Positions 2,171 through 25,761 of a stretch of 32,000 bases of DNA are shown here, piece after piece. The notes under the pieces are model-generated. The model saw only the letters and a program-made list of their open reading frames with translations, searched no databases and was not told where the DNA came from. Position numbers and translations under genes: made by a program. The stretch's first letter is position 1, and every line of letters starts with the position of its first letter. The stretch covers positions 3,780,001 through 3,812,000 of the forward strand of contig NZ_CP147990.1 in NCBI RefSeq assembly GCF_037902255.1. Direction: 5' to 3'. Source of the DNA: Candidatus Electrothrix sp. GW3-4. GTDB taxonomy: Bacteria > Desulfobacterota > Desulfobulbia > Desulfobulbales > Desulfobulbaceae.

Positions 2171-2294
2171 AACGTTTTTTTCTTTGCGGCGGAAGGAAAA
2201 AGAGACAACCACCTGATTCGTCCACACATTCATGGCAGCATATCGAAGAACATAGCAAACCGCCACCCCCTTGTCAACGCAGCTTTTTTAGGGA

Positions 2295-2322
2295 TTGACA
2301 TCTTTCTTTATAGTGGTAATTT
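2295..2322 (+). promoter_or_regulatory. Candidate sigma70-type promoter for the cmr operon
   Basis: TTGACA (2295-2300), a 16-nt spacer, then TAATTT (2317-2322). It lies about 55 nt upstream of the cmr1 ATG, in the divergent cas6/cmr1 intergenic region. This is a pattern match only. Confidence 0.3.
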
Positions 2323-2377
2323 GAGAAAATTCATAAGGATATTGACAGGGCATCCTTCATCTTCAAGGAGCAGGATT

Positions 2378-6914: not shown

Positions 6915-6937
6915 TAAACCGCACAGGAGAAAATATT

Positions 6938-7930
6938 ATGGAAACGATGTGTTACTATATCCACGCATTAACCGCCCTCCATGCGGGAACAGGCCAGGGT
7001 GTCGGGGTGGTGGACCTGCCCATTGCCCGGGAAAAATCCACTGGCCTGCCCATTGTGCCGGGCAGTGGGATCAAGGGGGTGTTGCGGGAGGAGTTGAATC
7101 CTTCAAATCCCGGAACGGACGACCTCCAACCTTGTAAAGATGAACATGGACAAGATCAATCAGCTGAAGAATGCTGGTTAACTTTGTTCGGGCCGGATGC
7201 CAAGAATGTTGAAACAGGAAAAGAAGGCAGCGGTTTTGCCGGGGCCTTGAATATCCAGGATGCCCAGCTGCTCTGCCTGCCGGTGCGCTCGGTGTACGGG
7301 GTCTTTGCCTGGGTAACCTGCCCGTTTATCCTGCAACGATACAAGCGGGATCTGGAGCAAATTCACTGCTCCTCTCTGCCGGAATTTCCTGCTCTGCCGC
7401 AACAGGAGCGTGGTTCAGAGGAGGCTCCCTTAGTATTGACTGCCCCAGGAAGTGCGCTGGCCCCTTCCGGCAAGGTCTTTCTTGAAGATCTCGACTTTCA
7501 GGTGGCCGATGACAGCGCAGGACAAACGACAGTGGGACAGCTTGCAGAGCGCATTGCTGGCGCTGTCTTTTCAACTGATGCTGATTGGAAGAAATTCTTT
7601 AAAGAACGTTTTCTGATCATCCCGGATAACGTATTCAGCTTTCTGGCTGAAACTGCCACCGAGGTGCGGGCGAGGATCAAGCTGAAAGAAGGCACCCGAA
7701 CAGTGGAAGAGGGGGCCTTGTGGTATGAAGAAAATCTGCCTGCTGAAACCCTGCTCTGGGGCATTATCGGCTGTGACCGTTCCCGCCGGGATAAAGACGG
7801 GCCGAACGCCGACCAGCTTATGCAGCATTTCCGGGATGAGATCGGTATGGAAAAAAGTTTACAAATCGGTGGCAATGCCACGGTCGGGCGGGGCCGGGTG
7901 CGTTGGATTCCCGGACCGGTGGGGGGCTGA
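6938..7930 (+). CDS. cmr4: Cmr4 (backbone RAMP and target-RNA cleaving subunit)
   Basis: 330 aa. ALTALHAGTGQGVGVVDLPIAREKSTGLPIVPGSGIKGVLRE includes the conserved Asp of the DLPI site. The C-terminal glycine loop is GGNATVGRG. AGGAG lies upstream of the ATG. Confidence 0.95.
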   Translation: METMCYYIHALTALHAGTGQGVGVVDLPIAREKSTGLPIVPGSGIKGVLREELNPSNPGTDDLQPCKDEHGQDQSAEECWLTLFGPDAKNVETGKEGSGFAGALNIQDAQLLCLPVRSVYGVFAWVTCPFILQRYKRDLEQIHCSSLPEFPALPQQERGSEEAPLVLTAPGSALAPSGKVFLEDLDFQVADDSAGQTTVGQLAERIAGAVFSTDADWKKFFKERFLIIPDNVFSFLAETATEVRARIKLKEGTRTVEEGALWYEENLPAETLLWGIIGCDRSRRDKDGPNADQLMQHFRDEIGMEKSLQIGGNATVGRGRVRWIPGPVGG

Positions 7931-7933
7931 GCC

Positions 7934-8380
7934 ATGCAGACACGACAGCAAAAGGATTCCCTCCGAGCCTTGGAAGATGTACAGGCAATCAGAGACAGTA
8001 ATGAAGATGACCTGAAGAAAACCTATGCCAGGGCCGTCTACCGCTTTCCCTTTTTGGTTCGGCAGAACGGTCTACAACAAACACTTGGTTTTTATGAGGG
8101 TAAGGCCAAGGATTCGTCCTCGTCAGGAACCGAGGGAGACGTTTCACACGGTAACGCTGAAGAAGAATTTTTAAAACATATTGCTCAGGTGCTGGGTATT
8201 GAAAGAAGTGACTTAATTTCTACGATCTCAGGGGCTGATGTAGAAAAATACATGTATCTATCCCGCCGCTGCCTTGAGGTTGCACTTTGGTATCGACGAT
8301 TTACAGCGAGTGTTCTTGGCGTTGATATTACGGGAAATCCAACTGAAGAGCAGGTGACAGCCGAGGGAGGCAAAGAATAA
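7934..8380 (+). CDS. cmr5: Cmr5 (small subunit)
   Basis: 148 aa, located between cmr4 and cmr6. Contains FPFLVRQNGLQQTLGF. The stop overlaps the cmr6 start (TAATG). Confidence 0.85.
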   Translation: MQTRQQKDSLRALEDVQAIRDSNEDDLKKTYARAVYRFPFLVRQNGLQQTLGFYEGKAKDSSSSGTEGDVSHGNAEEEFLKHIAQVLGIERSDLISTISGADVEKYMYLSRRCLEVALWYRRFTASVLGVDITGNPTEEQVTAEGGKE

Positions 8381-9636
8381 TGTCATTTCAGATGATCCGA
8401 CCTAAGCTTCCTCACAAAAGAGAGACTGATCAAACAGATTGGCAAAACTCTAGCCTATTTCTTGACAAGGGATTTCAAAAATGGGAGACAAACGATGGTG
8501 ATAGGGGAGAAGCCATAGGCAAGCACATCAAGGTTGCTTGCGAAATAGATGTACCTGAAGTCTACAAGGCAGCCTACACTCGATGGCTTGGAGAAACCGC
8601 CAACAAAGAGAGCTTTGCCCGTTGGTTTGGCAAACTCGATGGTACCCGTCTGTTCATTGGTTTAGGCATGGACCATGCACTGGAGGCCCAGGTCTGCCGT
8701 CACCCTGTCTACGGGATGCCCTATATTCCCGGCTCTGCCCTGAAAGGACTGGCCCGTGCTGAGGCGAAAAGATATGCCAAGAAACAGGAAGAGGAAGAAT
8801 CAAAAAAATTCAACAAAGTGATTGATATTCTGTTCGGACCGGATTGCAATGACTCGGATGATCCCGAGGCCGAAGCTAATACCGGCTACCTGATTTTTCA
8901 CGATGCTTGGTGGATTCCCGGCGGAAAAGCAGGAGGATGTCAACAAAAGCCCTATATCCCGGAGATCGTCACGGTTCATGCGGTTGAATATTATACAAAT
9001 CAAGGGAAAAAAGAAGCACCGCATCCTGATATGGAATCCCCCAACCCTAACCACCAAATCGCTGTTCAAGGGAGCTTTTATTTTGTGGTCGAAGGTGTGC
9101 AGCAATGGGCGGAACTGGGCATGAAATTTCTTACCTTGGGACTACAAGAAGAAGGAATTGGCGGTAAGATTAGCGCTGGGTACGGGTATTTTGTATGGGA
9201 TGAAAAAACTAAAAAAAATGGTGAGAATATCGCCAGAGAATGGGTCCAAAAAACCAAAGAAGCACAACAGCAAGTACGGATTAACAATCTAAGTGAATCT
9301 GAATACTTGGTTTATACGCTAAACAAACTGGTGGAGGAATATCAAAAAAACTCAAAGGTATTAGGGGAACGAGGAAGGAGTAAAATCCTACAGCAGGCTG
9401 CCGAGATTGAAAAGTACGAAAAATGGCCCGCACTATACAATAAAGAGAATGCCTTGGTGGCTGTTGCTCATGCCAAATCTGTAGCCACAATTACGAAAAA
9501 AAGAGCAGCAAAAAACGAAACCACAAACCACCATCGCAGAAAAAAATCGAAGCTAGAGCCAGAAAACGTCAGAAACAAAAGAATAAGAAGTAACTCTGAC
9601 TATCCCGAAGGGATTCTATTCACCAGCAAAGGGTAA
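8380..9636 (+). CDS. cmr6: Cmr6 RAMP subunit with a C-terminal K/E/Q-rich extension of about 146 aa
   Basis: 418 aa. The RAMP motifs YIPGSALKGLAR and GGKISAGYGYF are present. The recognisable core ends near aa 272 (about nt 9195). The rest is AT-rich, charged sequence ending in a basic tail (KKRAAKNETTNHHRRKKSK..NKRIR). Confidence 0.9.
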   Translation: MSFQMIRPKLPHKRETDQTDWQNSSLFLDKGFQKWETNDGDRGEAIGKHIKVACEIDVPEVYKAAYTRWLGETANKESFARWFGKLDGTRLFIGLGMDHALEAQVCRHPVYGMPYIPGSALKGLARAEAKRYAKKQEEEESKKFNKVIDILFGPDCNDSDDPEAEANTGYLIFHDAWWIPGGKAGGCQQKPYIPEIVTVHAVEYYTNQGKKEAPHPDMESPNPNHQIAVQGSFYFVVEGVQQWAELGMKFLTLGLQEEGIGGKISAGYGYFVWDEKTKKNGENIAREWVQKTKEAQQQVRINNLSESEYLVYTLNKLVEEYQKNSKVLGERGRSKILQQAAEIEKYEKWPALYNKENALVAVAHAKSVATITKKRAAKNETTNHHRRKKSKLEPENVRNKRIRSNSDYPEGILFTSKG

Positions 9637-9707
9637 CACCCTGGGTTAAGGACTTTACCCCGACTCGCTACCACGAATTTCATCGCAAACCATACAAGGT
9701 GTCAAGC

Positions 9708-10214
9708 ATGAATGATCTCAAAACCTGGTTGGAAAATATGGTCTTAACCTACAAGGTAATAACAATTATAATTTCCGGTGGGATACTATCTTTTTTTATT
9801 TATTTTTGGAGATATATAAAAGTTCAGTGGCGGTTTGGAAGAAATCTAAAAAGAGAAGTATACTTTCTGAAAACATCAGGCAAACATGACCTGCAAGCTG
9901 AACGAAAGAAACTGATTGATTTGAATGTATTTAATATAGCTGGAGAAGTTAAAGACATCTCAACGTCCACAAAAATATTGCAACCGATAAATAAAAATGC
10001 TGTTTATATCGTTGGCTACGATACTGACTATACTAGATATAAAGAACTTTTTGAGTCGGCAAAACCATCCGTCCCTATTATCATATTTGCCGATCAAAGA
10101 GAGATACAAAAATCAGAGCATTGGACAATATTCAATGAATATATTTATTGCGATGTAGCCAATACAACACATCGTCTTGCAATTATTTTGCTAAGTACAT
10201 TGAAAATTGTGTGA
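9708..10214 (+). CDS. Small single-pass membrane protein of unknown function, last gene of the cmr block
   Basis: The track ORF starts at GTG 9699. ATG 9708 (MNDLKTWLEN) has AAGG 8 nt upstream. One hydrophobic helix is present (VITIIISGGILSFFIYFW). It is followed by about 130 aa with an alternating beta/alpha-like pattern (VYFLKTSG, AVYIVGYD, PIIIFAD, YIYCDV). The gene is strongly AT-rich compared with its neighbours. Confidence 0.6.
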   Translation: MNDLKTWLENMVLTYKVITIIISGGILSFFIYFWRYIKVQWRFGRNLKREVYFLKTSGKHDLQAERKKLIDLNVFNIAGEVKDISTSTKILQPINKNAVYIVGYDTDYTRYKELFESAKPSVPIIIFADQREIQKSEHWTIFNEYIYCDVANTTHRLAIILLSTLKIV

Positions 10215-10273
10215 ATAGCTTGATCAACAATTCGACCTCCCAAAAAACTAATCAAACAATATCACAACACTTT

Positions 10274-11221
10274 TCAACCATCTCCCCAACTCAAAACCTG
10301 ATACCGCCCAAACCCCTTACTAGCCTGCTTACCAATATGCAACCACTGGCCGAGCCAGAGAAAAGGCCAGAACAGCTCCGGGTCCCTGGGCGCAAAATCC
10401 ACTGTTCCCAGAAATCCCCTCAACTCCACCTCCCTCCCCTGTCGCGCTGACCACCAGGTGGTGGTATGCGAGCGCAGGGCAATATTCATGACTTCGGACT
10501 GGGCCGCGCAGTCCTTGAGGGCCCGAAAATCGGCCTCCAGGGGACAGCCCATGTAAAAATACTGAAGCAGAGAAACACGCCGGATCACAGCCATGAGCAA
10601 CCGGCTGATCTCAAGGGTCTCTGGGCGGAAGGACTTGTCCGAGGGCAGATAGGGGGTGAGGAAGTGCAGCCGCAGAGCTGCGGGCGCAGGCGGCACCAGA
10701 GCTTGCTCCATAATACTGTCCTGAACCTCGCCCTGCTGATCCCAGATCAGCCGCTGGCCACCCGGCAACACCTGAGCAACTTGGAGCAATTCCGCCTTTG
10801 CCCTGTCCGAGCCAAACCCCAAGCGCCCGGATTTCTCCATAGCCCGAATCACCGCAGGCAGGCGTTTGCAGGCAGCCCCGGCTAGCACCAGGCCGTGGCT
10901 GAATTGTCCACCCGGCGAGATGCTCGCCGCACCGCATTGGTCGCTGTGAAAGATATGGGGCAACGGCACCGTGCCCACCTTGCGCATGATCTCCGCTTCT
11001 GGCGGCCTGGGGCCTTTGATGAAAAAGGCAAAATCGCATTGATGGCAAAGCATGCAGTCGGCACAGTCAGCATTGGGGGCAATACAGCTCTGCTGGTGCA
11101 GGGCCAGCCCGAACACACTGCGGCGGAGCGGGTCGGAAAAGAGCGGCAGGGTCAGGGGATCACGGGCCGTAAAGGTGAAACGGTATTCGGCAAGAATGAG
11201 ATGGGGTGTGCAAGGTTGCAT
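10274..11221 (-). CDS. cas6: Cas6-family pre-crRNA endoribonuclease, paralogue 2
   Basis: From ORF 10274-11272. It has the same HIGKQASKGFGRY loop and Cys-rich motif as paralogue 1. ATG 11221 (MQPCTPHLILAEYRF) is preceded by AGAAGG about 9 nt upstream. The ATG at 11272 is an alternative start. Confidence 0.8.
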   Translation of the reverse strand: MQPCTPHLILAEYRFTFTARDPLTLPLFSDPLRRSVFGLALHQQSCIAPNADCADCMLCHQCDFAFFIKGPRPPEAEIMRKVGTVPLPHIFHSDQCGAASISPGGQFSHGLVLAGAACKRLPAVIRAMEKSGRLGFGSDRAKAELLQVAQVLPGGQRLIWDQQGEVQDSIMEQALVPPAPAALRLHFLTPYLPSDKSFRPETLEISRLLMAVIRRVSLLQYFYMGCPLEADFRALKDCAAQSEVMNIALRSHTTTWWSARQGREVELRGFLGTVDFAPRDPELFWPFLWLGQWLHIGKQASKGFGRYQVLSWGDG

Positions 11222-11286
11222 ATCATGCCTTCTGTCTGAAAAAATGTTTCGCGTGGAGGGCTGTAGGGGCACGACGTGCCGTGCCC

Positions 11287-11592
11287 TTACTTCACCTCAA
11301 TAACCCGAAAGCCCTGATTACCAAAGCAGTAGATGACAAACAGGGCAATCCGTGCCCCTGGGTATTCCTGGCGCAGACCGTCGGCATAGCCAGCGATCTG
11401 TTCTGTATCTTGGGGCCGAAGCTGAAAATCCGCAATACTGGTTTTCATTTTTTTAAATTCGCTGTTGGAAAAATACTTAAATTCAATCACCCAGCGCAGG
11501 CCTGCGTAGATTTCGTTATACTTGGGCTTGTCAGTGGTCCATTCATTTTGAAAGGCTTTTTTCGCAAGGATACCCTGATGCTTACTTGCTGT
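11287..11592 (-). pseudogene. Probable 5'-truncated remnant of a PD-(D/E)XK-type nuclease gene
   Basis: The frame is open for 101 codons from an in-frame stop at 11593-11595. Its only start candidate is GTG 11490. It reads ..WTTDKPKYNEIYAGLRWVIEFKYF..DTEQIAGYADGLRQEYPGARIALFVIYCFGNQGFRVIEVK. The D-x13-E-x-K spacing and layout resemble the C-termini of the genes at 15366 and 20567. The family link is by eye only. Confidence 0.35.
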
Positions 11593-11845
11593 TCAAGCAC
11601 ACATAATACACAGATGCGGCTTGTTTGTCAGGTCGGATAAGGGGCGTTAGGGGAAAATGATGTTTTTTGAGGGGATTGCTGACTGATGCTTGCTGTTTTT
11701 CGTTTCCAGTAGCTCCAGCATATGTTACTATTATACCTGTCTTTAGATTGTTATGAGTAGGGGAACCGTCAAGCAATGGCTGGCGGAGATGATAGCGCAG
11801 GTGGTTTGTGCCTACTGAGAGAAAGGGGGGAAATCGGCCGGACAT

Positions 11846-12120
11846 GGAATTTTTTCAGGTTATTTTTTCTCGTTGTCATTATTCGTCATGATTAAAAAAA
11901 TGCATTTATAATTTTGATTTTTCAGGTAAAAATATTTTGAAAAACACTGTAAATTCAACTTTTAATACTGATTATGACAAAGTAGTCACGATGTCGTGCA
12001 ACGAATTGTATTATCGCTTGTAATGCCGATTCAAAATTCACAACTTTCAAAACCCGTTTCCATGTCGTTTTTTTACTTGCTTAATCTGCTGAATCTACTA
12101 TCGTTTGAAGCAAGGCCGCT
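11846..12120 (+). promoter_or_regulatory. AT-rich leader of CRISPR array 1
   Basis: About 275 bp of very AT-rich non-coding sequence immediately 5' of the first repeat. Orientation is inferred from the repeat 3' end ATTAAGAC, which resembles the canonical 8-nt crRNA handle. Confidence 0.5.
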
Positions 12121-14396
12121 GTCGTAGCACCTACCCTATGAAGAGGGTATTAAGACTTGGGCAGTTCCTCCCGTCCAAGAAAACTGGATGTCGTAGCACC
12201 TACCCTATGAAGAGGGTATTAAGACACAAGCATGGAGCAGGCTACAAGCCTGCTCCGTGTCGTAGCACCTACCCTATGAAGAGGGTATTAAGACGGGTAG
12301 GGATTTTACCAGCCAGAATAGTCCAAAGAGTCGTAGCACCTACCCTATGAAGAGGGTATTAAGACTTGATCGCTTGCCCGTAGCACCAGACATTCCGGTC
12401 GTAGCACCTACCCTATGAAGAGGGTATTAAGACCCATTTTGCCTAACTCTTTAAGTATCTGCTCGATGTCGTAGCACCTACCCTATGAAGAGGGTATTAA
12501 GACCTCTGAAAGTAACCTCCTCCACCTCATAGTACGCTGTCGTAGCACCTACCCTATGAAGAGGGTATTAAGACAGCGATGATGTTGCGGGGTGTAAAAA
12601 TCTTTTTCACGTCGTAGCACCTACCCTATGAAGAGGGTATTAAGACGCCATTCGTGAGCCTCTTCTTCAGAGAAGAAAGTCGTAGCACCTACCCTATGAA
12701 GAGGGTATTAAGACTGAGACGAGGAAGGACTTCCTCCCTCGTTTCCGTCGTAGCACCTACCCTATGAAGAGGGTATTAAGACCCCAGCGAAGAAAATCAA
12801 TCTTCTGGTTCTGGCTGTCGTAGCACCTACCCTATGAAGAGGGTATTAAGACACTCCTTCCGCCTGTGCCCCAGCGATGCTGGGGAGGTCGTAGCACCTA
12901 CCCTATGAAGAGGGTATTAAGACCGATTAAAAGGTCTCCGTTATCGCAGCTAGCGACTGTCGTAGCACCTACCCTATGAAGAGGGTATTAAGACAGTAGT
13001 TTTTTACACAAATGTGTCGCAGGGAAGAGGTCGTAGCACCTACCCTATGAAGAGGGTATTAAGACCTTAAATAATCCACCTCATTAGCGGTCATAACAGT
13101 GTCGTAGCACCTACCCTATGAAGAGGGTATTAAGACAACTTTGTAGTTCTTTGGGTATTATCATGATGTCGTAGCACCTACCCTATGAAGAGGGTATTAA
13201 GACTAAAAGGTGGTTGCGAGTTAGACACTGCTATCTCTGTCGTAGCACCTACCCTATGAAGAGGGTATTAAGACGACGAAATTGTTCAACGTGATAGCAA
13301 CTACGGCGGGTCGTAGCACCTACCCTATGAAGAGGGTATTAAGACAATTTTTTTCAGTTGTCTTCATTAGAGCATCCCGTCGTAGCACCTACCCTATGAA
13401 GAGGGTATTAAGACTCTTTAGTGTGGACACTATAATTTTCTTCTGGTCGTAGCACCTACCCTATGAAGAGGGTATTAAGACTTCACGCCTACTCCTTTCT
13501 TCGTGTTTTGCCCTCGTCGTAGCACCTACCCTATGAAGAGGGTATTAAGACTTTTGTTGCCCATGCCCTTTTTCTCGTATCGCTCCGTCGTAGCACCTAC
13601 CCTATGAAGAGGGTATTAAGACGTTACAATTAAGTTCAACTTTGCGACCTGAAGGGTCGTAGCACCTACCCTATGAAGAGGGTATTAAGACTTTCGAGTA
13701 AAAACTACTGCATACCTACCGAGATACGTCGTAGCACCTACCCTATGAAGAGGGTATTAAGACTTTTGCCCAGAAGAATCTCTAGAACTCCAGCTTCGTC
13801 GTAGCACCTACCCTATGAAGAGGGTATTAAGACAACATTAATATCATCACTACTCCCGTTAGTGACGTCGTAGCACCTACCCTATGAAGAGGGTATTAAG
13901 ACCGAAGGATTTTTGATCTTGCGACAAATCTGCACGAGGTCGTAGCACCTACCCTATGAAGAGGGTATTAAGACCGTTGGAGAGGTTGTCAATTGCTTCT
14001 TTCTCGGAACGTCGTAGCACCTACCCTATGAAGAGGGTATTAAGACTTCCTCTAGGCTCTCCATTTTTAAAGAAAATGGGGTCGTAGCACCTACCCTATG
14101 AAGAGGGTATTAAGACATGACGCTCGAGCGACCAGTTAAACGCAGGTACTGTCGTAGCACCTACCCTATGAAGAGGGTATTAAGACGCGTTGCCACTGCT
14201 GGCAACGTAACTTTCCGCTGTCGTAGCACCTACCCTATGAAGAGGGTATTAAGACCTCCTCAGCCTGCGCATTTGCTTGTGCGTCTGCCTGTCGTAGCAC
14301 CTACCCTATGAAGAGGGTATTAAGACATAGCCCGGCTTAGGCGGATTACCTTGAGCTAAGGTCGTAGCACCTACCCTATGAAGAGGGTATTAAGAC
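12121..14396 (+). CRISPR. CRISPR array 1: 33 repeats and 32 spacers
   Basis: The 36-nt repeat is GTCGTAGCACCTACCCTATGAAGAGGGTATTAAGAC. I saw no variant copy by eye. Spacers are about 31-36 nt by hand count. The repeat has an internal hairpin, TACCCT-ATGAAG-AGGGTA. Confidence 0.98.
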
Positions 14397-14531
14397 CAAA
14401 TTAACAGCGGGCTTTCGCCTACTCTCATCCCATCCTTTTTCACCTTTCTCTCTTATTCTGATTCCAAACTTTGAGCATATCGAATATAATAGCTTATTCG
14501 TCCTTGTTGCTTTGTCTCTAAGAGGGGAAAA

Positions 14532-14822
14532 GTGATTTACAATTTTGAGTGGAATCCGAATAAAGCCAAGAAAAATATCCGGAAGCATAAGGTCAGCTTT
14601 GAAGAAGCGTCTACAGTGTTTCGTGACCCAGCAGCTTTGACAATATTTGACCCTGACCATAGTGAAACGGAAGACAGGTGGCTAACAGTCGGAATTTCCA
14701 GAGCTGGCAAAGTGCTGTTGGTTTGTCATACATATAAGCAAGTTGACGTGGAAACGGCAATAATTCGTATATTTTCAAGCCGGAAAGCCACTGCATCTGA
14801 AAAAAGGGAATATGGTGAGTGA
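14532..14822 (+). CDS. brnT: BrnT (DUF497) ribonuclease toxin
   Basis: 96 aa, with a GTG start preceded by GAGGGG. FEWNPNKAKKNIRKHKVSFEEASTVFRDP...IRIFSSRKATASEKREY fits the DUF497/BrnT consensus as I recall it. Confidence 0.85.
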   Translation: MIYNFEWNPNKAKKNIRKHKVSFEEASTVFRDPAALTIFDPDHSETEDRWLTVGISRAGKVLLVCHTYKQVDVETAIIRIFSSRKATASEKREYGE

Positions 14823-15024
14823 GATGAGAAAAGAGTATGATTTTTCCCAAGGCGAACGAGGAAAATTTTTAAAAAAAGATGTCAAGCTCAACCTTCCTGT
14901 TTACCTTGAAGACGATATTTTTGATTATATTGAAAAAATTGCAAAAAAAAGAAAAGCTGATGTGTCTTCTGTTGTTAATCAGCTTTTACGTAGCGATATT
15001 CAAATGATTGAATCTGTTAAGTAG
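14812..15024 (+). CDS. brnA: BrnA-like antitoxin
   Basis: 70 aa. It overlaps the brnT 3' end by 11 nt. MRKEYDFSQGERGKF...PVYLEDDIFDYIEKIA...VVNQLLRSDIQMIE is the typical small antitoxin pattern found downstream of BrnT. Confidence 0.75.
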   Translation: MVSEMRKEYDFSQGERGKFLKKDVKLNLPVYLEDDIFDYIEKIAKKRKADVSSVVNQLLRSDIQMIESVK

Positions 15025-15053
15025 AACCTGATTCTTTCAGAGACTCGCGTTAA

Positions 15054-15089
15054 GCTGTAGCACCTACCCTATGAAGAGGGTATTAAGAC
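15054..15089 (+). repeat. Orphan or terminal CRISPR repeat of array-1 type (34/36 match)
   Basis: GCTGTAGCACCTACCCTATGAAGAGGGTATTAAGAC differs from the array-1 repeat only at positions 2-3 (CT for TC). It lies 657 bp after repeat 33. Confidence 0.9.
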
Positions 15090-15317
15090 CGTAGGGGCGA
15101 CCGGCCGGTCGCCCCTACGCCCCGTGCAATCTTTTCAGAAATTCCACCTTCTTCCGCAGTTGCCGTGTGTCTGCCCTTGATGTCTCCACCAAGACAGGCC
15201 GGGCAAACACCCCGGCTGAAAATGCTTTTTTCATCCCACCCCCTCCTTTTTCACCACCCCCAGAAAACATATTGATAAACCACCCAATACAGGTAGTATT
15301 CAGGTGAGAACATCCAA
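15090..15317 (+). repeat. Array trailer, copy A. It has a 30-nt perfect palindrome and a candidate promoter for the downstream gene.
   Basis: CGTAGGGGCGACCGGCCGGTCGCCCCTACG (15090-15119) is a perfect palindrome. By eye, the whole segment is identical to 20259-20500 except for a 14-nt indel. It also contains TTGATA (15272-15277), a 16-nt spacer and TAGTAT (15294-15299). Confidence 0.85.
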
Positions 15318-15365
15318 ACGAGCCGCCAACTTGCCCGGCATCCGTCCGACACCTGAAGGAGCAAC

Positions 15366-16925
15366 ATGGAGAAATTAGGCTTAGGGATACAGGAACTGGC
15401 TGTATTCAAAGAGAAGGGGCTGATCTATGTGGATAAAACCGAGCTTATTGAAAAACTGATAAACAGTGGCAAATACTATTTCCTCTCCCGGCCCAGACGC
15501 TTTGGTAAATCCCTGCTGGTCAACACAATCCAGGAGCTTTTTTCCGGCAACAAAGACCTGTTCACAGGCTGTCACGTACATGATTCCTGGAACTGGGAGG
15601 AGAAACACCCGGTCATAAAGATCAGCTTTTCAGAGATGAACTACCGGCAGGACGGTCTGGAAAAGGCCCTGGAGGACTCCCTGCTGCAATTAGCTGAGGA
15701 GCATGGTGTCCAATTTACTACATCAGGTTACGGCAACAGGTTTCTGGAGCTGATCAAGGCGGTGGGCAGGGAAACACCGGCGGTTGTCCTGATTGATGAA
15801 TACGATAAACCAATTATTGATTATCTGGAAAAATCCGCCAACGAACAGGCCGAAGCAAATCGGGAAATACTGAAAACCTTCTATACCGGCATCAAGGATC
15901 AGGACAGGTTTCTCCGCTTCCTCCTGATCACCGGGGTATCCAAGTTCAGCAAGGTTTCCATCTTCAGCGACCTGAACCACCTGACCGACATCACCGTGTC
16001 CAGGCATTTTGCTGCGATAGCCGGGTACAGCGAAGCGGAAATCAGGCGGCATTACCCACAGTACCTGACCGCGCTCAGCCGGGATTACAACCTCTCCGAA
16101 GACGAGATGATGAAGGAGATTGCCCTCTGGTATAACGGCTACTCCTGGGACGGCAAGACCTTCCTCTTTAACCCCTATTCGATCATCAGTCTGTTTTTTC
16201 ACCAGATATTTAAGAATTTCTGGTTCGAAACCGGCACCCCAACCTTTCTTGTTCAACGGATCAAGGAGTCTGGCCGGAAGATCAACGAGTCCATAAGCAA
16301 GGAGATCAACGAATCCGTCTTTAGCAGGTATGATGTCGATAATATGAACACCACAGCCATCATGTTTCAGACAGGCTACCTGACCATCAAGGAGTTTGAC
16401 TGGAGACGGAACAAGTACCGCCTTGATTTCCCGAACAAAGAGGTCCGTGAATCCTTTCTCCATTTTGCTGCGGAGCATTATGTGGGCAGCTCCCAGGATG
16501 AGATGGGCGGCATTACGGAAATGCTGGCCGAGGCCCTTGCCTTGAACGATATGCAGAGCTTTTTTATTGCCCTGCAAGCCCTGTTCAGTTCAATAGCGGT
16601 CAAGCAGCTGGACAAAGTGAAGGAATACGAAGGATTTTATCATTCCGTGATCTATATTGTCCTGAAGCTCCTCGGTATGCAGATCGCCTGTGAAGTGCAG
16701 TCAAATTTCGGCACCACAGATGCGGTCCTGCAAACAGCGGAACATATCTATGTGCTTGAGTTCAAAATGGGCACTGCCGCCTCGGCACTGGAACAGATCA
16801 AAAAGAGAAAATATCACACGCCGTATCTTGCCGATCAACGGGGTTTGGTGCTTGTCGGTTTCGGTTTTGACAAGGCGGAACGAAATCTGACGGATTTTCT
16901 TGCTGAGGAGATAGAGAATCGGTGA
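15366..16925 (+). CDS. AAA-ATPase-like plus PD-(D/E)XK (PDDEXK_9/DUF1703-type) protein, paralogue A
   Basis: 519 aa. The N-terminus YVDKTELIEKLI..YYFLSRPRRFGKSLL and VVLIDEYDKP fit the AAA-ATPase_like domain. The C-terminus TTDAVLQTAEHIYVLEFKMG..ALEQIKKRKY has the PD-(D/E)XK D...ExK core. Confidence 0.85.
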   Translation: MEKLGLGIQELAVFKEKGLIYVDKTELIEKLINSGKYYFLSRPRRFGKSLLVNTIQELFSGNKDLFTGCHVHDSWNWEEKHPVIKISFSEMNYRQDGLEKALEDSLLQLAEEHGVQFTTSGYGNRFLELIKAVGRETPAVVLIDEYDKPIIDYLEKSANEQAEANREILKTFYTGIKDQDRFLRFLLITGVSKFSKVSIFSDLNHLTDITVSRHFAAIAGYSEAEIRRHYPQYLTALSRDYNLSEDEMMKEIALWYNGYSWDGKTFLFNPYSIISLFFHQIFKNFWFETGTPTFLVQRIKESGRKINESISKEINESVFSRYDVDNMNTTAIMFQTGYLTIKEFDWRRNKYRLDFPNKEVRESFLHFAAEHYVGSSQDEMGGITEMLAEALALNDMQSFFIALQALFSSIAVKQLDKVKEYEGFYHSVIYIVLKLLGMQIACEVQSNFGTTDAVLQTAEHIYVLEFKMGTAASALEQIKKRKYHTPYLADQRGLVLVGFGFDKAERNLTDFLAEEIENR

Positions 16926-17226
16926 ACAAAATAACTTTTGTTATCAATACGCTTTCTCCTTGCCGGACATTAAGGTTGATTCACCCTGCCGGAGCAAAAT
17001 GCGCGAACCTCAAGCAGACATTTTGGGAAATACATTTTTATGGCCAATAACAACCCTGATACAGCAAGTTACACGGAAAAACAGAAAAACAGGTTCGCAG
17101 TGCTTGAAATTATTATAAAAAGAGGTAATATGAGGCCTGTTGTAACGGGTGTTGCAACCGGTCTGACAGGGGTTCGCGCAAACCACCTTGCAGCTCTTTG
17201 ATGTTAAAAGAGAAAAAAGGGTGACA
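16926..17226 (+). promoter_or_regulatory. Leader of CRISPR array 2
   Basis: 301 bp of non-coding sequence 5' of the first array-2 repeat. I see no similarity to the array-1 leader. Confidence 0.45.
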
Positions 17227-20200
17227 GTTGCAGCACCCCACCCTATGAAGAGGGTATTGAGACCCAGCCTGGAACATCAACGGTTGCCTTGTATACTGTT
17301 GCAGCACCCCACCCTATGAAGAGGGTATTGAGACTCAATTACTTTTGTTTTTTTCTTGCGATATATTCTTGTTGCAGCACCCCACCCTATGAAGAGGGTA
17401 TTGAGACATATCCACCGTTGCCAGATTTTTATGAGTCGCGTGGTTGCAGCACCCCACCCTATGAAGAGGGTATTGAGACATGGTTTTAACAACTCTGGGC
17501 CTAAAATCGTTTGGTTGCAGCACCCCACCCTATGAAGAGGGTATTGAGACAAGTGCGTATTCTCTAGCCTTCCAAGCTACTTCCGTTGCAGCACCCCACC
17601 CTATGAAGAGGGTATTGAGACACTTAACATTTTTTTTTCTCCGTTTGTTTTTATGAGTTGCAGCACCCCACCCTATGAAGAGGGTATTGAGACGAGGTCA
17701 AACTCTTCAGCGACTTCGCTGTCGCTGAGTTGCAGCACCCCACCCTATGAAGAGGGTATTGAGACATCGGAAGCTTAATTTCAGACTCGCCAGAAGGATG
17801 TTGCAGCACCCCACCCTATGAAGAGGGTATTGAGACGCCCATCAACAATCCTTATGCGCCGGGCCGGACTTGTTGCAGCACCCCACCCTATGAAGAGGGT
17901 ATTGAGACTTGGCTTTGCCGGTCAAGAGCAATGGCAAAAAGACGTTGCAGCACCCCACCCTATGAAGAGGGTATTGAGACCGAGTCGATTACGAAGAAAT
18001 GAGCTTTGCGTACCGTTGCAGCACCCCACCCTATGAAGAGGGTATTGAGACCGAGCTGGAGCACTGAGCCTTTAAGGTCCCCCTCGTTGCAGCACCCCAC
18101 CCTATGAAGAGGGTATTGAGACCTGCTCCCTTCAGCATCAAAAACAACAAATCCCTGTTGCAGCACCCCACCCTATGAAGAGGGTATTGAGACAACCCAG
18201 CAGGGTAGTTATGCCCTCGCTCCGGGCACGTTGCAGCACCCCACCCTATGAAGAGGGTATTGAGACAAGTTCTTCATAGTATTCTGACAGGGCAATGAGC
18301 GCGTTGCAGCACCCCACCCTATGAAGAGGGTATTGAGACAGGAGTGTATGCATGTCTTTCGGCAACAGCGGTTGTTGCAGCACCCCACCCTATGAAGAGG
18401 GTATTGAGACATTGTCACTCAAATCTACCGAGGCGGTGAGGTCGTTGCAGCACCCCACCCTATGAAGAGGGTATTGAGACTGTCCAGGAGAGTTTTTTTG
18501 CGTAGCGCAACCAGAGTTGCAGCACCCCACCCTATGAAGAGGGTATTGAGACACGCTATTCTCCTTGCCCCGTTGCCGGGGCGGTTGGTTGCAGCACCCC
18601 ACCCTATGAAGAGGGTATTGAGACCACGTCTTGTCAGTGCCTTTTTTGCGCTGGATTTTGTTGCAGCACCCCACCCTATGAAGAGGGTATTGAGACCCCT
18701 AAAGGATCTTGCCAGATCATGATATCCTCGGTTGCAGCACCCCACCCTATGAAGAGGGTATTGAGACTGCTCCCGTGTTGGTCGTTGCGATACCGGATAA
18801 AGGTTGCAGCACCCCACCCTATGAAGAGGGTATTGAGACGTCGCAGAGTAAGGTCGCTGTCCACATTTAAAAGTTGCAGCACCCCACCCTATGAAGAGGG
18901 TATTGAGACAGCTTCAGCCAGCACCTCTTCATGCCACCCTTCAGTTGCAGCACCCCACCCTATGAAGAGGGTATTGAGACCAGGCGAAAGCCTCGGTATT
19001 GTTGCGGCTGCTACCGTTGCAGCACCCCACCCTATGAAGAGGGTATTGAGACATGCACCTCAAGGGCGTAGAGGGGTCAGGAAAGTCAAGTTGCAGCACC
19101 CCACCCTATGAAGAGGGTATTGAGACTTGTATTCCTGCGGCTCTACCACTATCTTATATGGCGTTGCAGCACCCCACCCTATGAAGAGGGTATTGAGACC
19201 GTTTACGTTTGCGGCGCTTTGCGCGCCTATCCAGGTTGCAGCACCCCACCCTATGAAGAGGGTATTGAGACAGGTCACAGAGCAGAGTCTTTGGCTTAAT
19301 ACGGGGTTGCAGCACCCCACCCTATGAAGAGGGTATTGAGACCATTTGTCGCGTGGTATCGCCCGCAAAATATATGAGTTGCAGCACCCCACCCTATGAA
19401 GAGGGTATTGAGACTACATTGTGAGCAGGTTATATCAGGCACGATTCCGTTGCAGCACCCCACCCTATGAAGAGGGTATTGAGACCTCCTCGCCCCGCTC
19501 CGGGGCGGTTGTTTTTAGGTTGCAGCACCCCACCCTATGAAGAGGGTATTGAGACGTATGGTTGACCATGCAATTCTCTTTTGTATCAAGTTGCAGCACC
19601 CCACCCTATGAAGAGGGTATTGAGACACCGCACTGATCCAGGGTTTTAAACTCAACCCGGGTTGCAGCACCCCACCCTATGAAGAGGGTATTGAGACAGC
19701 CAGATCCCTGGATCTAGAAAGGATATATTCCGTTGCAGCACCCCACCCTATGAAGAGGGTATTGAGACCGCTCTCCAGCTCCACACGTCCTTTGCTGCTG
19801 CGTTGCAGCACCCCACCCTATGAAGAGGGTATTGAGACGTTCCGTATGGTAAAAATCCACGGTAAAACTTTGTTGCAGCACCCCACCCTATGAAGAGGGT
19901 ATTGAGACTGCCAATAGCCTCCCGGTCCCTTTTCCGCCTCCGTTGCAGCACCCCACCCTATGAAGAGGGTATTGAGACACTGCGGGGGTAATGCGTGGGG
20001 GTGGGGTACTTGTTGCAGCACCCCACCCTATGAAGAGGGTATTGAGACAAAGAGATAGAGGCCCAACTCAATGCCCGCCGCGTTGCAGCACCCCACCCTA
20101 TGAAGAGGGTATTGAGACGCCAATCCATTCACGCATCATGGGAAACCGCTCGGTTGCAGCACCCCACCCTATGAAGAGGGTATTGAGACCTTGCCCGCCG

Positions 20201-20258
20201 TGTTTGTTGATTACTGTTTTGGTTGCAGCACCCCACCCTATGAAGAGGGTATTGAGAC
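17227..20258 (+). CRISPR. CRISPR array 2: 43 repeats and 42 spacers
   Basis: The 37-nt repeat is GTTGCAGCACCCCACCCTATGAAGAGGGTATTGAGAC. I saw no variant copy by eye. Spacers are about 32-37 nt. It shares the CCCTATGAAGAGGGTATT core with array 1 but differs in the 5' third and at one handle position. Confidence 0.98.
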
Positions 20259-20500
20259 CGTAGGGGCGACCGGCCGGTCGCCCCTACGCCCCGTGCAATC
20301 TTTTCAGAAATTCCACCTTCTTCCGCAGTTGCCGTGTGTCTGCCCTTAATGCTTCCACCGAGATGTCTCCACCAAGACAGGCCGGGCAAACACCCCGGCT
20401 GAAAATGCTTTTTTCATCCCACCCCCTCCTTTTTCACCACCCCCAGAAAACATATTGATAAACCACCCAATACAGGTAGTATTCAGGTGAGAACATCCAA
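20259..20500 (+). repeat. Array trailer, copy B (palindrome plus candidate promoter)
   Basis: It starts immediately after the last array-2 repeat with the same 30-nt palindrome (20259-20288). It is identical to 15090-15317 apart from a 14-nt insertion (AATGCTTCCACCGA). The TTGATA/TAGTAT pair is conserved at 20455-20460 and 20477-20482. Confidence 0.85.
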
Positions 20501-20566
20501 GCCTTGCAAGGTGGGCTACCGAGGTAAAACGATAAGACAGCCCCGTATATAGATTCAGGAAAAGAT

Positions 20567-22132
20567 ATGAAAAAACTCAGCCTAGGCATCCAGAACTTCC
20601 CAGCCTTCCAAGCCAACAACCTCATCTACGTCGACAAGACCCAGCTTATCCACAGGCTCATAGACGACGGAAGCTACTACTTCCTCTCCCGGCCCCGGCG
20701 CTTCGGCAAATCCCTACTGGTCAGCACCATGCAGGAACTGTTTTCCGGCAACAAAGAACTCTTCAAGGATTGCTGGATCTATGACCAATGGGATTGGGAG
20801 AAAAAATACCCGGTCATCAGAATCAGCTTTGCCGAAATCGACTACAGAAGCCTGGGCATGGAAAAGGCCTTGGAGCTTTTTCTTGCAGACCAGGCTGAGC
20901 AGCATAATGTCCGTTTGACCTCAACGAGTTACGGCGGTCAATTTTTAGAGCTGATCAAAGAGGTGGGTAAAGAAACACCCGTGGCGGTGTTTATTGATGA
21001 ATACGATAAACCAATCATCGATTATCTTGAACATACTCATTTCGAACAGGCCCTGGAGAACCGGGAAATCCTGAAAACGCTCTATGCCGGAATCAAAGAT
21101 CAGGGAAAATACCTGCGCTTTTTCTTTATGACCGGCGTGTCAAAGTTCAGCAAGGTCTCCATATTCAGTGATCTGAACCACCTCACCGACATAACCCTGA
21201 TTCGCCATTTTTCCGCAATCACCGGCTACACTGAAGCGGAAATCAGAACATATTACGGGGCCTACCTTCAGGCCTTGGCCGATGAACTCGGGTTGTCACA
21301 GGACGACACCATGCAACAGGTCGCCCAATGGTACAACGGCTATTCCTGGGACGGCAGCGCCTTTCTCTTTAACCCCTATTCGGTTCTACGCCTCTTGTAC
21401 GAGCAGGAATTTAAAAATTTCTGGTTTGAAACCGGAACCCCGACTTTCCTGATTAATAGGCTCAAAGAGAGCGGCAGAAAGATCAATGAATCTATCAATA
21501 AGGCGGTCAAGGAATCAGCCTTTAACAAGTATGATATTGATAATATCAACATCACCGCCATCATGTTTCAGACCGGCTACCTGACCATAAAAAAGGCGGA
21601 CAGGAGTTGTGGCGAATATCTCCTTGAATTTCCCAACAAAGAAGTGCGAGATTCTTTTCTGGACTTTGCGGTTGAGCATTACGCCGACAGCTCGCGGGAT
21701 GAGATGGGATCTGTTGTGGAAATGCTGCTTGAGGCCCTTGAGCAGAATGATATGCAAATCTTTTTCACGGCCCTCCAGGCCTTATTCAGCTCAATAACGG
21801 TTAAACAGCTGGATAAGGTTAAGGAATATGAGGGGTTTTATCATTCCATCATCTATATTGTCCTGAAGCTCCTCGGTATGCAGATCGCCTGTGAAGTGCA
21901 GTCAAATTTCGGCACCACAGATGCGGTCCTGCAAACAGCGGAACATATCTATGTGCTTGAGTTCAAAATGGGCACTGCCGCCTCGGCACTGGAACAGATC
22001 AAAAAGAGAAAATATCACACACCGTATCTTGCCGATCAACGGGGTTTGGTGCTTGTCGGTTTCGGTTTTGACAAGGCGGAACGAAATCTGACGGATTTTC
22101 TTGCTGAGGAGATAGACAAGGACGTTGGTTAG
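20567..22132 (+). CDS. AAA-ATPase-like plus PD-(D/E)XK (PDDEXK_9/DUF1703-type) protein, paralogue B
   Basis: 521 aa with the same domain motifs as paralogue A (YYFLSRPRRFGKSLL, VFIDEYDKP, YVLEFKMG). Roughly 70% aa identity to A over most of its length. The last 266 nt are near-identical to A. Confidence 0.85.
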   Translation: MKKLSLGIQNFPAFQANNLIYVDKTQLIHRLIDDGSYYFLSRPRRFGKSLLVSTMQELFSGNKELFKDCWIYDQWDWEKKYPVIRISFAEIDYRSLGMEKALELFLADQAEQHNVRLTSTSYGGQFLELIKEVGKETPVAVFIDEYDKPIIDYLEHTHFEQALENREILKTLYAGIKDQGKYLRFFFMTGVSKFSKVSIFSDLNHLTDITLIRHFSAITGYTEAEIRTYYGAYLQALADELGLSQDDTMQQVAQWYNGYSWDGSAFLFNPYSVLRLLYEQEFKNFWFETGTPTFLINRLKESGRKINESINKAVKESAFNKYDIDNINITAIMFQTGYLTIKKADRSCGEYLLEFPNKEVRDSFLDFAVEHYADSSRDEMGSVVEMLLEALEQNDMQIFFTALQALFSSITVKQLDKVKEYEGFYHSIIYIVLKLLGMQIACEVQSNFGTTDAVLQTAEHIYVLEFKMGTAASALEQIKKRKYHTPYLADQRGLVLVGFGFDKAERNLTDFLAEEIDKDVG

Positions 22133-22194
22133 CAAGGCGACACCTGCCCTATGAAGAGGGTATTGAGACCGTAGGGGCGACCGGCCGGTCGCCC
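22133..22194 (+). repeat. Degenerate CRISPR repeat plus truncated trailer palindrome (third copy)
   Basis: ...CACCTGCCCTATGAAGAGGGTATTGAGAC (ends at 22169) keeps the 3' 23 nt of the repeat exactly. Upstream of one mismatch a further CACCT matches the array-1 repeat. CGTAGGGGCGACCGGCCGGTCGCCC follows. A diverged homologue of the trailer (TGCCGTGT..GACAGG..AACACCCCGG) comes next. Confidence 0.8.
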
Positions 22195-22376
22195 TGCCGT
22201 GTCTCTATTCTTGCAGTTTTCATCGAGACAGGTCAGGGCGAACACCCCGGACAGAAACTGGCCTTGGTGTCCACCGCCCCGACGAACATTACAGAACCGC
22301 CTCTGCACCAAAGACCCAAAAATCCCCCCGCAATCCGCAACCATTCGCAATAATCCCACCACCCCACGACACTCCC

Positions 22377-22405
22377 TTGACGTGACAGCAGCTTACGTTT
22401 ATTCT
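22377..22405 (+). promoter_or_regulatory. Candidate hemL promoter
   Basis: TTGACG (22377-22382), a 17-nt spacer, then TATTCT (22400-22405). It lies about 75 nt upstream of the hemL ATG. This is a pattern match only. Confidence 0.3.
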
Positions 22406-22479
22406 GTACCAGCGCATATACATACGCCCAACGAAAAATCCAATCATCATCTCAACCCATAACCATTCCATAACTATCC

Positions 22480-25698: not shown

Positions 25699-25710
25699 TC
25701 GTACCCCCAC

Positions 25711-25761
25711 TTTTCTTGACCTACTTTTTTTGACCTACTTTTTTTGACCTACTTTTTTTGA
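25711..25761. repeat. 14-nt tandem repeat, about 3.6 copies
   Basis: TTTT(C/T)TTGACCTAC at 25711, 25725 and 25739, plus a partial copy. It lies in the intergenic region between the terminator and the helicase stop. Confidence 0.8.

Follow-up and report, generated by a model that had tools for sequence, protein, structure and literature searches.

A BrnT-Family Toxin-Antitoxin Operon Bounded by CRISPR Repeats at the Trailer End of a Candidatus Electrothrix Array

Results and Discussion

A Repeat-Bounded Operon

The 32,000-nucleotide stretch of Candidatus Electrothrix sp. GW3-4 analyzed here (NZ_CP147990.1, positions 3,780,001 to 3,812,000; the window) contains two CRISPR arrays, the first of which ends in a toxin-antitoxin (TA) operon that occupies the place of a spacer. 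Array 1 (12121–14396) consists of 33 identical 36-nt repeats (GTCGTAGCACCTACCCTATGAAGAGGGTATTAAGAC) and 32 spacers of 31–36 nt. An AT-rich conserved leader (11860–12120, + strand, with a promoter-like site at 11883–11912), degenerate repeat copies at the far end and the 3' tag ATTAAGAC indicate that the array reads on the + strand. The same leader precedes arrays in E. communis CP130629.1 (L001 in our numbering of related loci) and in L135. Chance is no issue for these repeats: for the 18-nt repeat core, 0.05 occurrences would be expected in the window, and there are 78.

The last regular repeat (repeat 33, 14361–14396) is followed by a 657 bp insert (14397–15053) and then by a relic terminal repeat (GCTGTAGC..., 15054–15089, + strand) that matches at 34 of 36 positions and in which the hairpin-plus-tag half is intact. 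Located at the trailer end of the array, the insert is flanked on both sides by direct copies of the array 1 repeat that agree in register and orientation. Its GC content is 38.2%, compared with 46.8% for array 1 and 49.7% for the window. A preliminary description of this DNA, made from the letters alone, had reported the end of repeat 33 at 14396, the 34/36 repeat copy with a conserved trailer behind it, the AT-rich insert, a TATAAT box at 14485–14490 and a shared orientation of insert and array; all of these statements were borne out, the last by the leader, the far-end copies and the tag. With 657 bp against 31–36 nt for the 32 true spacers, the insert falls outside the spacer length range. 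It is not a spacer, and nothing points to its acquisition by the adaptation machinery; Pfam, NCBIfam and PADLOC scans of the window found no cas1, cas2 or cas6.

Judged from its sequence, the insert is an intact type II TA operon that encodes a predicted BrnT RNase toxin and a small, putative ribbon-helix-helix (RHH) antitoxin. The first gene, brnT (14532–14822, + strand), starts with GTG behind the Shine-Dalgarno sequence AGAGGGG (14521–14527) and codes for a 96-residue protein. This protein matches the BrnT_toxin family (PF04365, E = 1e-26) over model positions 1–77 of 77, that is, over the entire BrnT (DUF497) domain, and the solved toxin 7vd7 in the PDB (E = 1e-15). The second gene (14812–15024, + strand) completes a toxin-first two-gene operon: its open reading frame (ORF) either begins at 14812, overlaps brnT by 11 nt and codes for 70 residues, or begins at 14824 and codes for 66. 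The pairing of BrnT with a small downstream partner is kept in all homologous loci.

BrnT/BrnA is a type II TA system (PF04365, PF14384) that was first described in Brucella abortus. The window operon shares with it the full-length BrnT/DUF497 toxin, the order of the genes and the overlapping small antitoxin gene with an RHH fold. The antitoxin itself differs, as it falls into a separate DUF6364-related family of 66–70 residues. The partner protein did not match Pfam BrnA_antitoxin (PF14384), only DUF6364 at a sub-threshold E-value of 0.0037; an exact-sequence look-up of the 66-residue form found nothing on record. The family is conserved behind BrnT genes in many genomes, where the homologues are unannotated or labeled DUF6364. 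An AlphaFold model (18 homologues; predicted local distance difference test score 77) shows an unstructured N-terminal third with an invariant EYDFxxGxRGKF motif, followed by an extended LPVYL segment and two helices, which is the strand-helix-helix layout of RHH proteins. The top Foldseek matches of this model were CopG, Arc and RHH antitoxins, with probabilities of at most 0.99 and E-values that are non-significant for so small a domain, and the protein profile gave weak matches to a CopG-family protein and to VapB26. The lack of a Pfam BrnA match together with the RHH model suggests that the pair combines a BrnT toxin with an RHH antitoxin in a BrnA-like layout and that the partner is not a member of the BrnA family. 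The earlier designation as a complete brnT-brnA pair therefore stands for the toxin and not for its partner; we use brnTA below as a name for the pair.

Between array-embedded copies, the ratio of nonsynonymous to synonymous substitution rates (dN/dS) is 0.15–0.25 for the toxin and 0.05–0.21 for the antitoxin. These low values indicate that both genes are maintained by purifying selection. The antitoxin gene also occurs in two alleles that are distinguished by about 22 clustered differences within 100 nt (14845–14945 in the window, 10330–10430 in L001). The window and L003 carry one allele, L001 and the E. marina locus L002 carry the other, and brnT and the 5' region are nearly invariant. This pattern looks like a recombination patch.

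The region between repeat 33 and brnT (14397–14531, + strand) holds a degenerate trailer, a promoter, a candidate operator and the Shine-Dalgarno sequence. The promoter consists of a −35 element TTCCAA (14462–14467), a 17-nt spacing and the −10 box TATAAT noted above. An inverted repeat, CGAATA-N8-TATTCG (14481–14500), spans this box and is a candidate operator. The region is 89% identical to the orthologous region in L135. The first 60 nt after repeat 33 fold with only −5.6 kcal/mol (z = −0.6), so that there is no strong hairpin before brnT. This segment is a decayed trailer unit that has lost its hairpin and kept the CCTTTTTCACC motif and the promoter; the orthologous locus L132 retains the hairpin intact. 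The upstream region of CRISPR-embedded brnTA is homologous to array trailers and not to the DNA upstream of BrnTA copies outside CRISPR arrays. This homology indicates that the brnTA promoter derives from an array trailer and did not arrive with the TA genes. A promoter of this origin and the flanking CRISPR repeats are further differences from BrnT/BrnA.

At the other end of the insert, the relic repeat resembles repeat 33 in that both keep a 6-bp stem, a 6-nt loop and the ATTAAGAC tail. Comparison of the relic repeat with its ortholog in L135 shows that the hairpin-plus-tag half (the 3' 23 nt) is 96% conserved, with 23 of 24 positions identical, and the 5' 13 nt 43%. The non-coding DNA beside the relic is 28–64% identical between the same two loci, which are separated by a synonymous divergence (dS) of about 0.35–0.44. 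Since our census of relic repeats drew on the 18-nt core itself, we claim no selection on the core from that census; the comparison with L135 is the only unbiased hint of conservation.

The Same Cassette in Other Genomes

Three other assemblies code for an identical BrnT protein, and relatives with 83% identity occur in two more sets of contigs. In all, at least five further Candidatus Electrothrix assemblies carry the cassette behind spacers unrelated to those of the window. The cassette-bearing loci are those of E. communis (L001) and E. marina (L002/L013) as well as L139/L140, L003, L135 and L132–134. At 83–100% BrnT identity, the cassette always follows directly after a repeat, and a relic repeat lies at its far end wherever the contig extends that far. 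The left junction common to these cassettes reads C[A/T]A[A/G]ATTAACAGCGG..., with the exception of L132, where a terminator hairpin intervenes; behind orthologous cassettes, a GTAGGGGCGAC... hairpin comes after the relic repeat. The window and L001/L002 are homologous from inside the upstream repeat to about 13 nt past the relic repeat. The upstream spacers differ in all of these loci around an almost unchanged cassette; downstream, the window continues with an ATPase gene and L001/L002 with a VapBC cassette. The spacers of both window arrays have none in common with any other locus, even where the cassettes are about 99% identical. All that is left of the array in L135 is a leader, one repeat, brnTA and the relic repeat, so that brnTA is the sole "spacer". 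L132 has a 22-repeat array, then a truncated repeat with a terminator hairpin, the promoter and brnTA; beyond brnTA follow a repeat fragment, two relic repeats around a 35-nt spacer, a XisH/XisI pair and another repeat.

Outside CRISPR arrays, we found only more distant BrnT homologues (about 66–70% identity) and a homologue in L141/L142 with an 80% identical antitoxin. These resemble the window cassette in the coding region only. On the question raised in the preliminary description, whether relatives carry the same TA pair at sites without a link to an array, the outcome favors that description: all close relatives are array-linked and only distant homologues lie elsewhere. The claim that the TA operon sits in a spacer slot by more than accident is upheld by these comparisons: the link of brnTA to the array is real and old.

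Two of the distant copies also lie between direct repeats of other kinds. The L141/L142 homologue sits in a non-CRISPR island of TA pairs (PIN, MNT/HepT and ParE/Phd). In L142, the cassettes of this island are separated by a 183-nt direct repeat (667–849, 1401–1583 and 3130–3312; 95–96% identical), of which L141 contains four related copies. The 183-nt repeat holds hairpins and a terminator-like element, and Rfam scans of L141/L142 gave chance matches only and no family for it; the island represents another type of TA cassette array with repeats as boundaries. In L145, a homologue with 69% identity is flanked by tandem arrays of the octamer AGGCACTG (3704–3790 and 4497–4561).

We also asked for a mobile carrier of the cassette. 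Plasmid and phage collections gave no match, and viral contigs contained zero matches to the repeat core; these collections thus gave no sign of such an element. The relic repeats lie in a chromosomal setting whose neighboring genes include those for ATP synthase, UvrD and a histidine kinase.

A Chain of Cassettes on the Trailer Side

The brnTA slot is one of many. We counted intervals of 300–3000 nt between successive same-strand repeat copies in Electrothrix loci and found 37 repeat-bounded oversized slots of about 12 types. Two types contain BrnT, namely the pair of the window and a second pair with a 47% identical toxin and an unrelated antitoxin. Two contain PIN domains: a DUF2281-like/PIN VapBC pair and a second PIN pair. 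Other TA or paired genes are HigB/HigA, MNT/HepT, UPF0175/DUF3368 and XisH/XisI. Rpn-family nucleases and AAA-ATPase/PDDEXK_9 genes make up the nuclease types, and the remainder are a reverse transcriptase (RT) fragment with HicB and a leader, and one empty slot. All slot genes with Pfam or NCBIfam support lie on the repeat strand; the few longer antisense ORFs that overlap them are without such support. In most slot types, the relic repeat begins 1–45 nt after the last stop codon. The trailer side of Electrothrix arrays is a chain of co-oriented cassettes, mostly RNase-type TA pairs and PD-(D/E)XK nuclease genes.

Most cassettes are preceded by a common unit: a repeat, a GC-rich hairpin of the terminator or REP-like kind that often has a T-run, and a promoter-like element of the sigma-70 type, TTGCCA/TTGCAA-N17-18-TAYAAT. 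The hairpin, evaluated over the first 60 nt, folds with −17.7 to −28 kcal/mol in 10 of 14 units; two units upstream of VapB reach −9.9 and −8.6 kcal/mol. The promoter-like element was found upstream of 10 of 14 cassette starts. The two trailers of the window are versions of the same repeat-hairpin-promoter unit. Since a terminator hairpin stands before the promoter in L132 and in most other cassette types, these units as a rule look insulated from the array.

A scan of one genome per species for a repeat end joined to the hairpin returned 10 loci, all from Electrothrix save one short Robiginitalea-binned contig that is near-identical to an Electrothrix locus. The pattern used for metagenomes was too loose, as 12 of 118 stretches held real repeats; these added twelve loci. 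We considered that "repeat plus GTAGGGGC hairpin" may be a dispersed miniature inverted-repeat transposable element. This idea was rejected because the unit occurs in those 10 loci only, always accompanied by further copies of the repeat on one stretch; just two of the loci lie in the complete E. laxa chromosome. Hairpins of the GTAGGGGC type are also scattered in Electrothrix intergenic DNA (e.g., L001 11700–12000) and are related to the GTAGGGGCGACCGGCCGGTCGCCCCTAC palindrome of the window trailers described below. In several loci, they truncate the repeat right after ...GGGTATT, as though inserting at the repeat 3' end. A further recurring neighbor is an RVT_1 gene or gene fragment between the cassette chain and the next leader (L001 12065–12697, L002 12021–12473, L135 391–861), with no adjacent cas1.

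The order of the cassettes varies between genomes, and several loci record their turnover. In the E. laxa locus L006, the boundary repeats are present and the cassette is absent. A degenerate repeat, CGCTACACTGTCGCCCCATGAAAAGGGTATTATGAT, comes after VapBC in L001, L002 and L139; L048 has a near-identical variant of it after MNT-HepT, and about 100 nt of the 3' end of vapC remain before this variant. In L011, HigBA occupies the position of the second BrnT pair of L001, L012 and L139, and the 3' half of the antitoxin gene of that pair (brnA2) remains. The next cassette in L011, VapBC, ends at a relic repeat, beyond which lie a 32-nt spacer and a regular repeat; this spacer and regular repeat show that those cassettes are internal to an array. 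Replacements retain the left boundary and break within the old cassette on the right. This pattern suggests that one side was joined by homology and the other illegitimately, unlike in a site-specific event. The boundary unit to the left of a cassette differs from the unit to its right, and there is no target-site duplication signature.

The Surrounding Locus

Upstream of array 1, the window contains a type III-B effector operon, cmr1–cmr6 (1415–9636, + strand), in which Pfam, NCBIfam and PADLOC identify Cmr1, Cas10/Cmr2, Cmr3, Cmr4, Cmr5 and Cmr6. On the array-distal side of this operon lies an MNT/HepT pair (245–866, − strand; MNT 579–866, NTP_transf_2 E = 2.6e-16; HepT 245–586, HepT-like E = 3.5e-28), so that TA modules bracket the cmr genes and array 1. 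The Cmr1 protein has an N-terminal extension of about 350 residues (1415–2482) without a Pfam or PDB relative. A 171-residue protein encoded 3' of cmr6 (9699–10214) matches the PADLOC type III-associated transmembrane family C3a59. Also 3' of cmr6, positions 10292–10591 are an 86% identical copy of 1241–1540, which comprise the upstream region and the start of cmr1; this partial copy of cmr1 is split into three short ORFs (10148–11239) and appears to be a decayed partial duplication. Cmr4 (6938–7930; L001 982–1950; L002 310–1344) is a mosaic among Electrothrix genomes, with about 99% identity over the first ~135 residues, a highly divergent center with indels and 75% identity overall. We tried Cmr4 divergence as a yardstick for recent horizontal transfer of the cassette, for which a protein that is itself mosaic is no guide. 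Just 5' of leader 1, read from the sequence, lies the 3' end of a hicB gene (11762–11818, + strand; last 18 codons, GTVKQWLAEMIAQVVCAY*). Its residues agree with the C-terminal end of HicB, which is encoded intact in front of the array leaders of L001, L002 and L139.

Behind the relic repeat of array 1 follows a trailer unit (15090–15365, + strand) with a 28-nt perfect palindrome, GTAGGGGCGACCGGCCGGTCGCCCCTAC (15091–15118; fold −39.5 kcal/mol, z = −4.7), and a promoter-like TTGATA-N16-TAGTAT (15272–15299) 5' of a first AAA-ATPase_like/PDDEXK_9 gene. This gene spans 15366–16925 (+ strand; Pfam E = 8e-58 and 1e-16), and leader 2 comes after it. Array 2 (17227–20258, + strand) comprises 43 copies of a 37-nt repeat variant (GTTGCAGCACCCCACCC...ATTGAGAC). 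Its last repeat directly abuts a second copy of the trailer unit (20259–20566, + strand; 95–100% identical to 15090–15317), and there is no TA operon at this position. The palindrome, which has ends of the repetitive extragenic palindromic type (GTAG...CTAC), recurs at 20260–20287. Over 15063–15317 and 20232–20500, the two trailers are 95–100% identical, 139 nt of it without any difference, while the ATPase genes behind them share only about 72–77% of their DNA sequence. This discrepancy points to gene conversion or to strong constraint on the trailer. ATPase gene 2 (20567–22132, + strand), likewise an AAA-ATPase_like/PDDEXK_9 gene, ends 1 nt before a solitary relic repeat (AAGGCGACACCTGCCCTATGAAGAGGGTATTGAGAC, 22134–22169, + strand), which is followed by GTAGGGGCGACCGGCCGGTCGCCC, with the GTAGGGGCGACC hairpin; this gene, too, fills a 1.9-kb slot between two repeat copies, namely the last repeat of array 2 and the relic. 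The same layout recurs in the metagenome locus L025. An Rfam scan of 9500–23000 matched no family, CRISPR-DR families included. Further downstream, four tandem copies of a 14-nt unit, CCTACTTTTTTTGA (25706–25761), lie beside the 3' end of a UvrD-like helicase gene (25780–27933, − strand).

Origin and Maintenance of the Cassettes

How does a TA operon come to persist between two CRISPR repeats? On balance, we think it probable that the slots hold self-retaining addiction cassettes that are kept and shuffled by recombination at the repeat copies. The mechanism is argued from comparative anatomy. DNA between direct repeats would be readily deleted by repeat-repeat recombination, and the survivors would be enriched for modules whose loss is punished. 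Co-oriented repeat copies in several arrays per genome would provide homology for unequal crossing-over and thus for the shuffling of cassettes; for example, crossing-over between the relic repeats behind the two BrnT pairs of L001 would yield the order found in L011. The repeat copies could also supply homology for the anchored capture of cassettes from other strains, which would replace resident ones. We expect that brnTA is transcribed mainly from its own trailer-derived promoter, with probable autoregulation through the inverted repeat that covers the −10 box; at the window locus, some read-through from the array may occur. The net effect on CRISPR function would be small, with deletion of the terminal slot or of the whole array end penalized and loss of spacers not.

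The preliminary description had gone further and suggested that an addiction module inside the array could stabilize the array. We find no support for this with respect to the spacers. A TA operon in the terminal slot penalizes only those deletions that include the slot and hence protects itself, not the spacers. The collapse of the array in L135 and the absence of common spacers next to nearly identical cassettes also argue against protection of spacer content.

Several points weigh against addiction and shuffling as the full explanation. No recombination intermediate or excision product was observed in the sequences compared. Pure survivorship leaves unexplained why all cassettes are co-oriented with the array and why the relic repeat abuts the last stop codon so closely. 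The conservation of the 3' half of the relic repeat hints at a function or at gene conversion from the upstream repeat. Finally, the evidence comes from one genus, and some of the recurrences may stem from few ancestral events.

Co-orientation and close abutment are what would be expected if the flanking repeats served in RNA processing, an explanation put forward in the preliminary description that we regard as possible, if clearly not probable. Repeat 33 and the relic would then be Cas6 substrates: the array transcript would enter brnTA, cleavage 8 nt from the repeat 3' ends would free a TA mRNA with the 5' tag of a CRISPR RNA (crRNA) and a hairpin at its 3' end, and TA expression would be coupled to array transcription and crRNA maturation. 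The weak folding between repeat 33 and brnT, the intact stem, loop and ATTAAGAC tail in both repeats and the conservation of the 3' 23 nt of the relic far above its surroundings are consistent with such a role. Yet cas6 is not in the window, the cassette has its own conserved promoter, and the L132 orthologue and most cassette types place a terminator hairpin, often with a T-run, before that promoter. Several relic repeats lack the tag or contain an indel in it, and if its 5' tag brought the RNA into Cmr, the trimming to crRNA length that follows would destroy it as a message. Another RNA-based explanation follows the CreTA/crlRNA systems (PMC10097628; bioRxiv 10.1101/2024.12.27.630466), in which degenerate or solitary repeats beside toxin or defense genes are a hallmark and the toxin is tied to the CRISPR locus. 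RNA from the relic repeat and the sequence behind it would guide Cmr to the brnTA promoter or mRNA, and loss or inhibition of the CRISPR effector would set the toxin free; a cut in the terminal repeat would indeed yield a tag-plus-hairpin RNA of crRNA size. In the known examples considered here, the RNA antitoxin or guide pairs with the toxin promoter and acts with DNA-binding type I effectors, whereas the window encodes a type III-B effector and two predicted protein components, with a putative RHH repressor of their own. Comparison of the 40-mers behind the repeats with the cassette mRNA revealed no complementarity of at least 8 nt, and the matches on the opposite strand were a trivial self-match and one 8-nt match within the shuffled range. 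We consider this explanation very improbable.

Modular units with conserved boundaries, variable order, presence/absence polymorphism and strict co-orientation also recall integrons. A dedicated enzyme could use the repeats, or the repeat-plus-hairpin units, as recombination sites at which cassettes are captured, excised and reordered; the candidates would be an adaptation integrase, the reverse transcriptase nearby, and the nucleases of the cargo (Rpn or PD-(D/E)XK). The cargo, mostly promoter-bearing TA pairs, resembles that of sedentary chromosomal integrons (PMC13108822), and Rpn-family and PD-(D/E)XK nuclease genes as well as an RT fragment lie in or beside slots. We nevertheless judge a dedicated enzyme unlikely: no integrase, cas1 or cas2 occurs in the window or in the fetched flanks, the remnants of replaced cassettes mark the right junction as illegitimate and not site-specific, the boundary units of one cassette differ without any signature of target-site duplication, and ordinary homologous recombination between repeats already suffices for the observed orders. 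The opposite extreme, a one-off neutral accident by which a TA pair landed in the oldest and least-used spacer of array 1, is very improbable. TA modules are mobile and common in defense islands, selection at the trailer end of an array is weak, and distant BrnTA homologues do occur at ordinary chromosomal sites. Recurrence largely refutes the accident: the arrangement is kept down to 83% BrnT identity in several species, slots of the same kind hold about ten other sets of genes, and both genes are under purifying selection.

Relation to Known Systems

The closest analogue in logic is the TA cassette of sedentary integrons such as the Vibrio superintegron (PMC13108822, PMC11023631). Electrothrix arrays and these integrons are both long arrays of direct repeats with co-oriented cassettes in variable order, self-expressed TA pairs are over-represented in both, and in both the loss of a TA pair by repeat-mediated excision would be punished. 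The promoter-bearing TA cassettes of sedentary chromosomal integrons kill cells when cassette excision becomes too frequent (PMC13108822). In contrast to integrons, the boundaries in Electrothrix are CRISPR repeats and trailer hairpins instead of attC sites, neither the window nor the flanks of Electrothrix loci yielded an integron integrase, the cassettes are located at the trailer end of a working-looking spacer array, and the replacement junctions look illegitimate.

TA genes in the vicinity of CRISPR systems are known from other organisms. The relevant part of a report on Sulfolobales describes vapBC pairs that are interspersed among cas genes, with a proposed role in maintenance (PMC4390879), and a corresponding part on the Synechocystis plasmid pSYSA lists TA systems as well as CRISPR systems on this plasmid (PMC4963859). 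The window shares with these cases the packing of TA genes around CRISPR-Cas, to which it adds MNT-HepT left of cmr and the hicB remnant before the leader. The TA genes in those parts of the two reports lie among cas gene cassettes or on the same plasmid; neither a position between array repeats nor a shared repeat-trailer-promoter unit is reported there. RNA anti-CRISPRs (Racrs, PMC10651486) are likewise single CRISPR-like repeats outside a regular repeat-spacer series. They are carried by phages or plasmids and inhibit the host system, while the Electrothrix relics are chromosomal and adjoin their cognate array.

A full-text search of the literature found no description of TA genes in repeat-bounded slots of CRISPR arrays and nothing on Electrothrix CRISPR loci. 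The arrangement is apparently undescribed, recurrent and so far confined to one genus, as a variant of the known association between TA genes and CRISPR. A largely neutral, selfish-element explanation fits most of it. A more far-reaching proposal is that the CRISPR repeat of cable bacteria doubles as the boundary of a gene-cassette platform on type III-B arrays and that the relics are functional. We hold this to be doubtful, although conceivable. If so, the relics may be recombination sites through which TA and nuclease cassettes are captured, reordered and passed between arrays and strains, or Cas6 sites that set transcript ends, and an integron-like platform would have been built from CRISPR parts, which is a similarly tentative idea.

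Conclusions

CRISPR arrays are usually handled as pure lists of repeats and spacers, and array finders stop at the first oversized gap. In Electrothrix, the trailer end of an array can hold a structured and conserved chain of TA and nuclease genes that is bounded by relics of the repeat. The addiction modules in these slots leave spacer memory unpreserved. Should the relic repeats have a function, they would link crRNA processing to TA expression, or they would open a route for the repeat-mediated exchange of defense genes, in parallel to integrons that use TA cassettes to restrain recombination-prone arrays. Under the neutral reading, too, these loci provide a natural example of addiction modules that survive where direct repeats delete all else.

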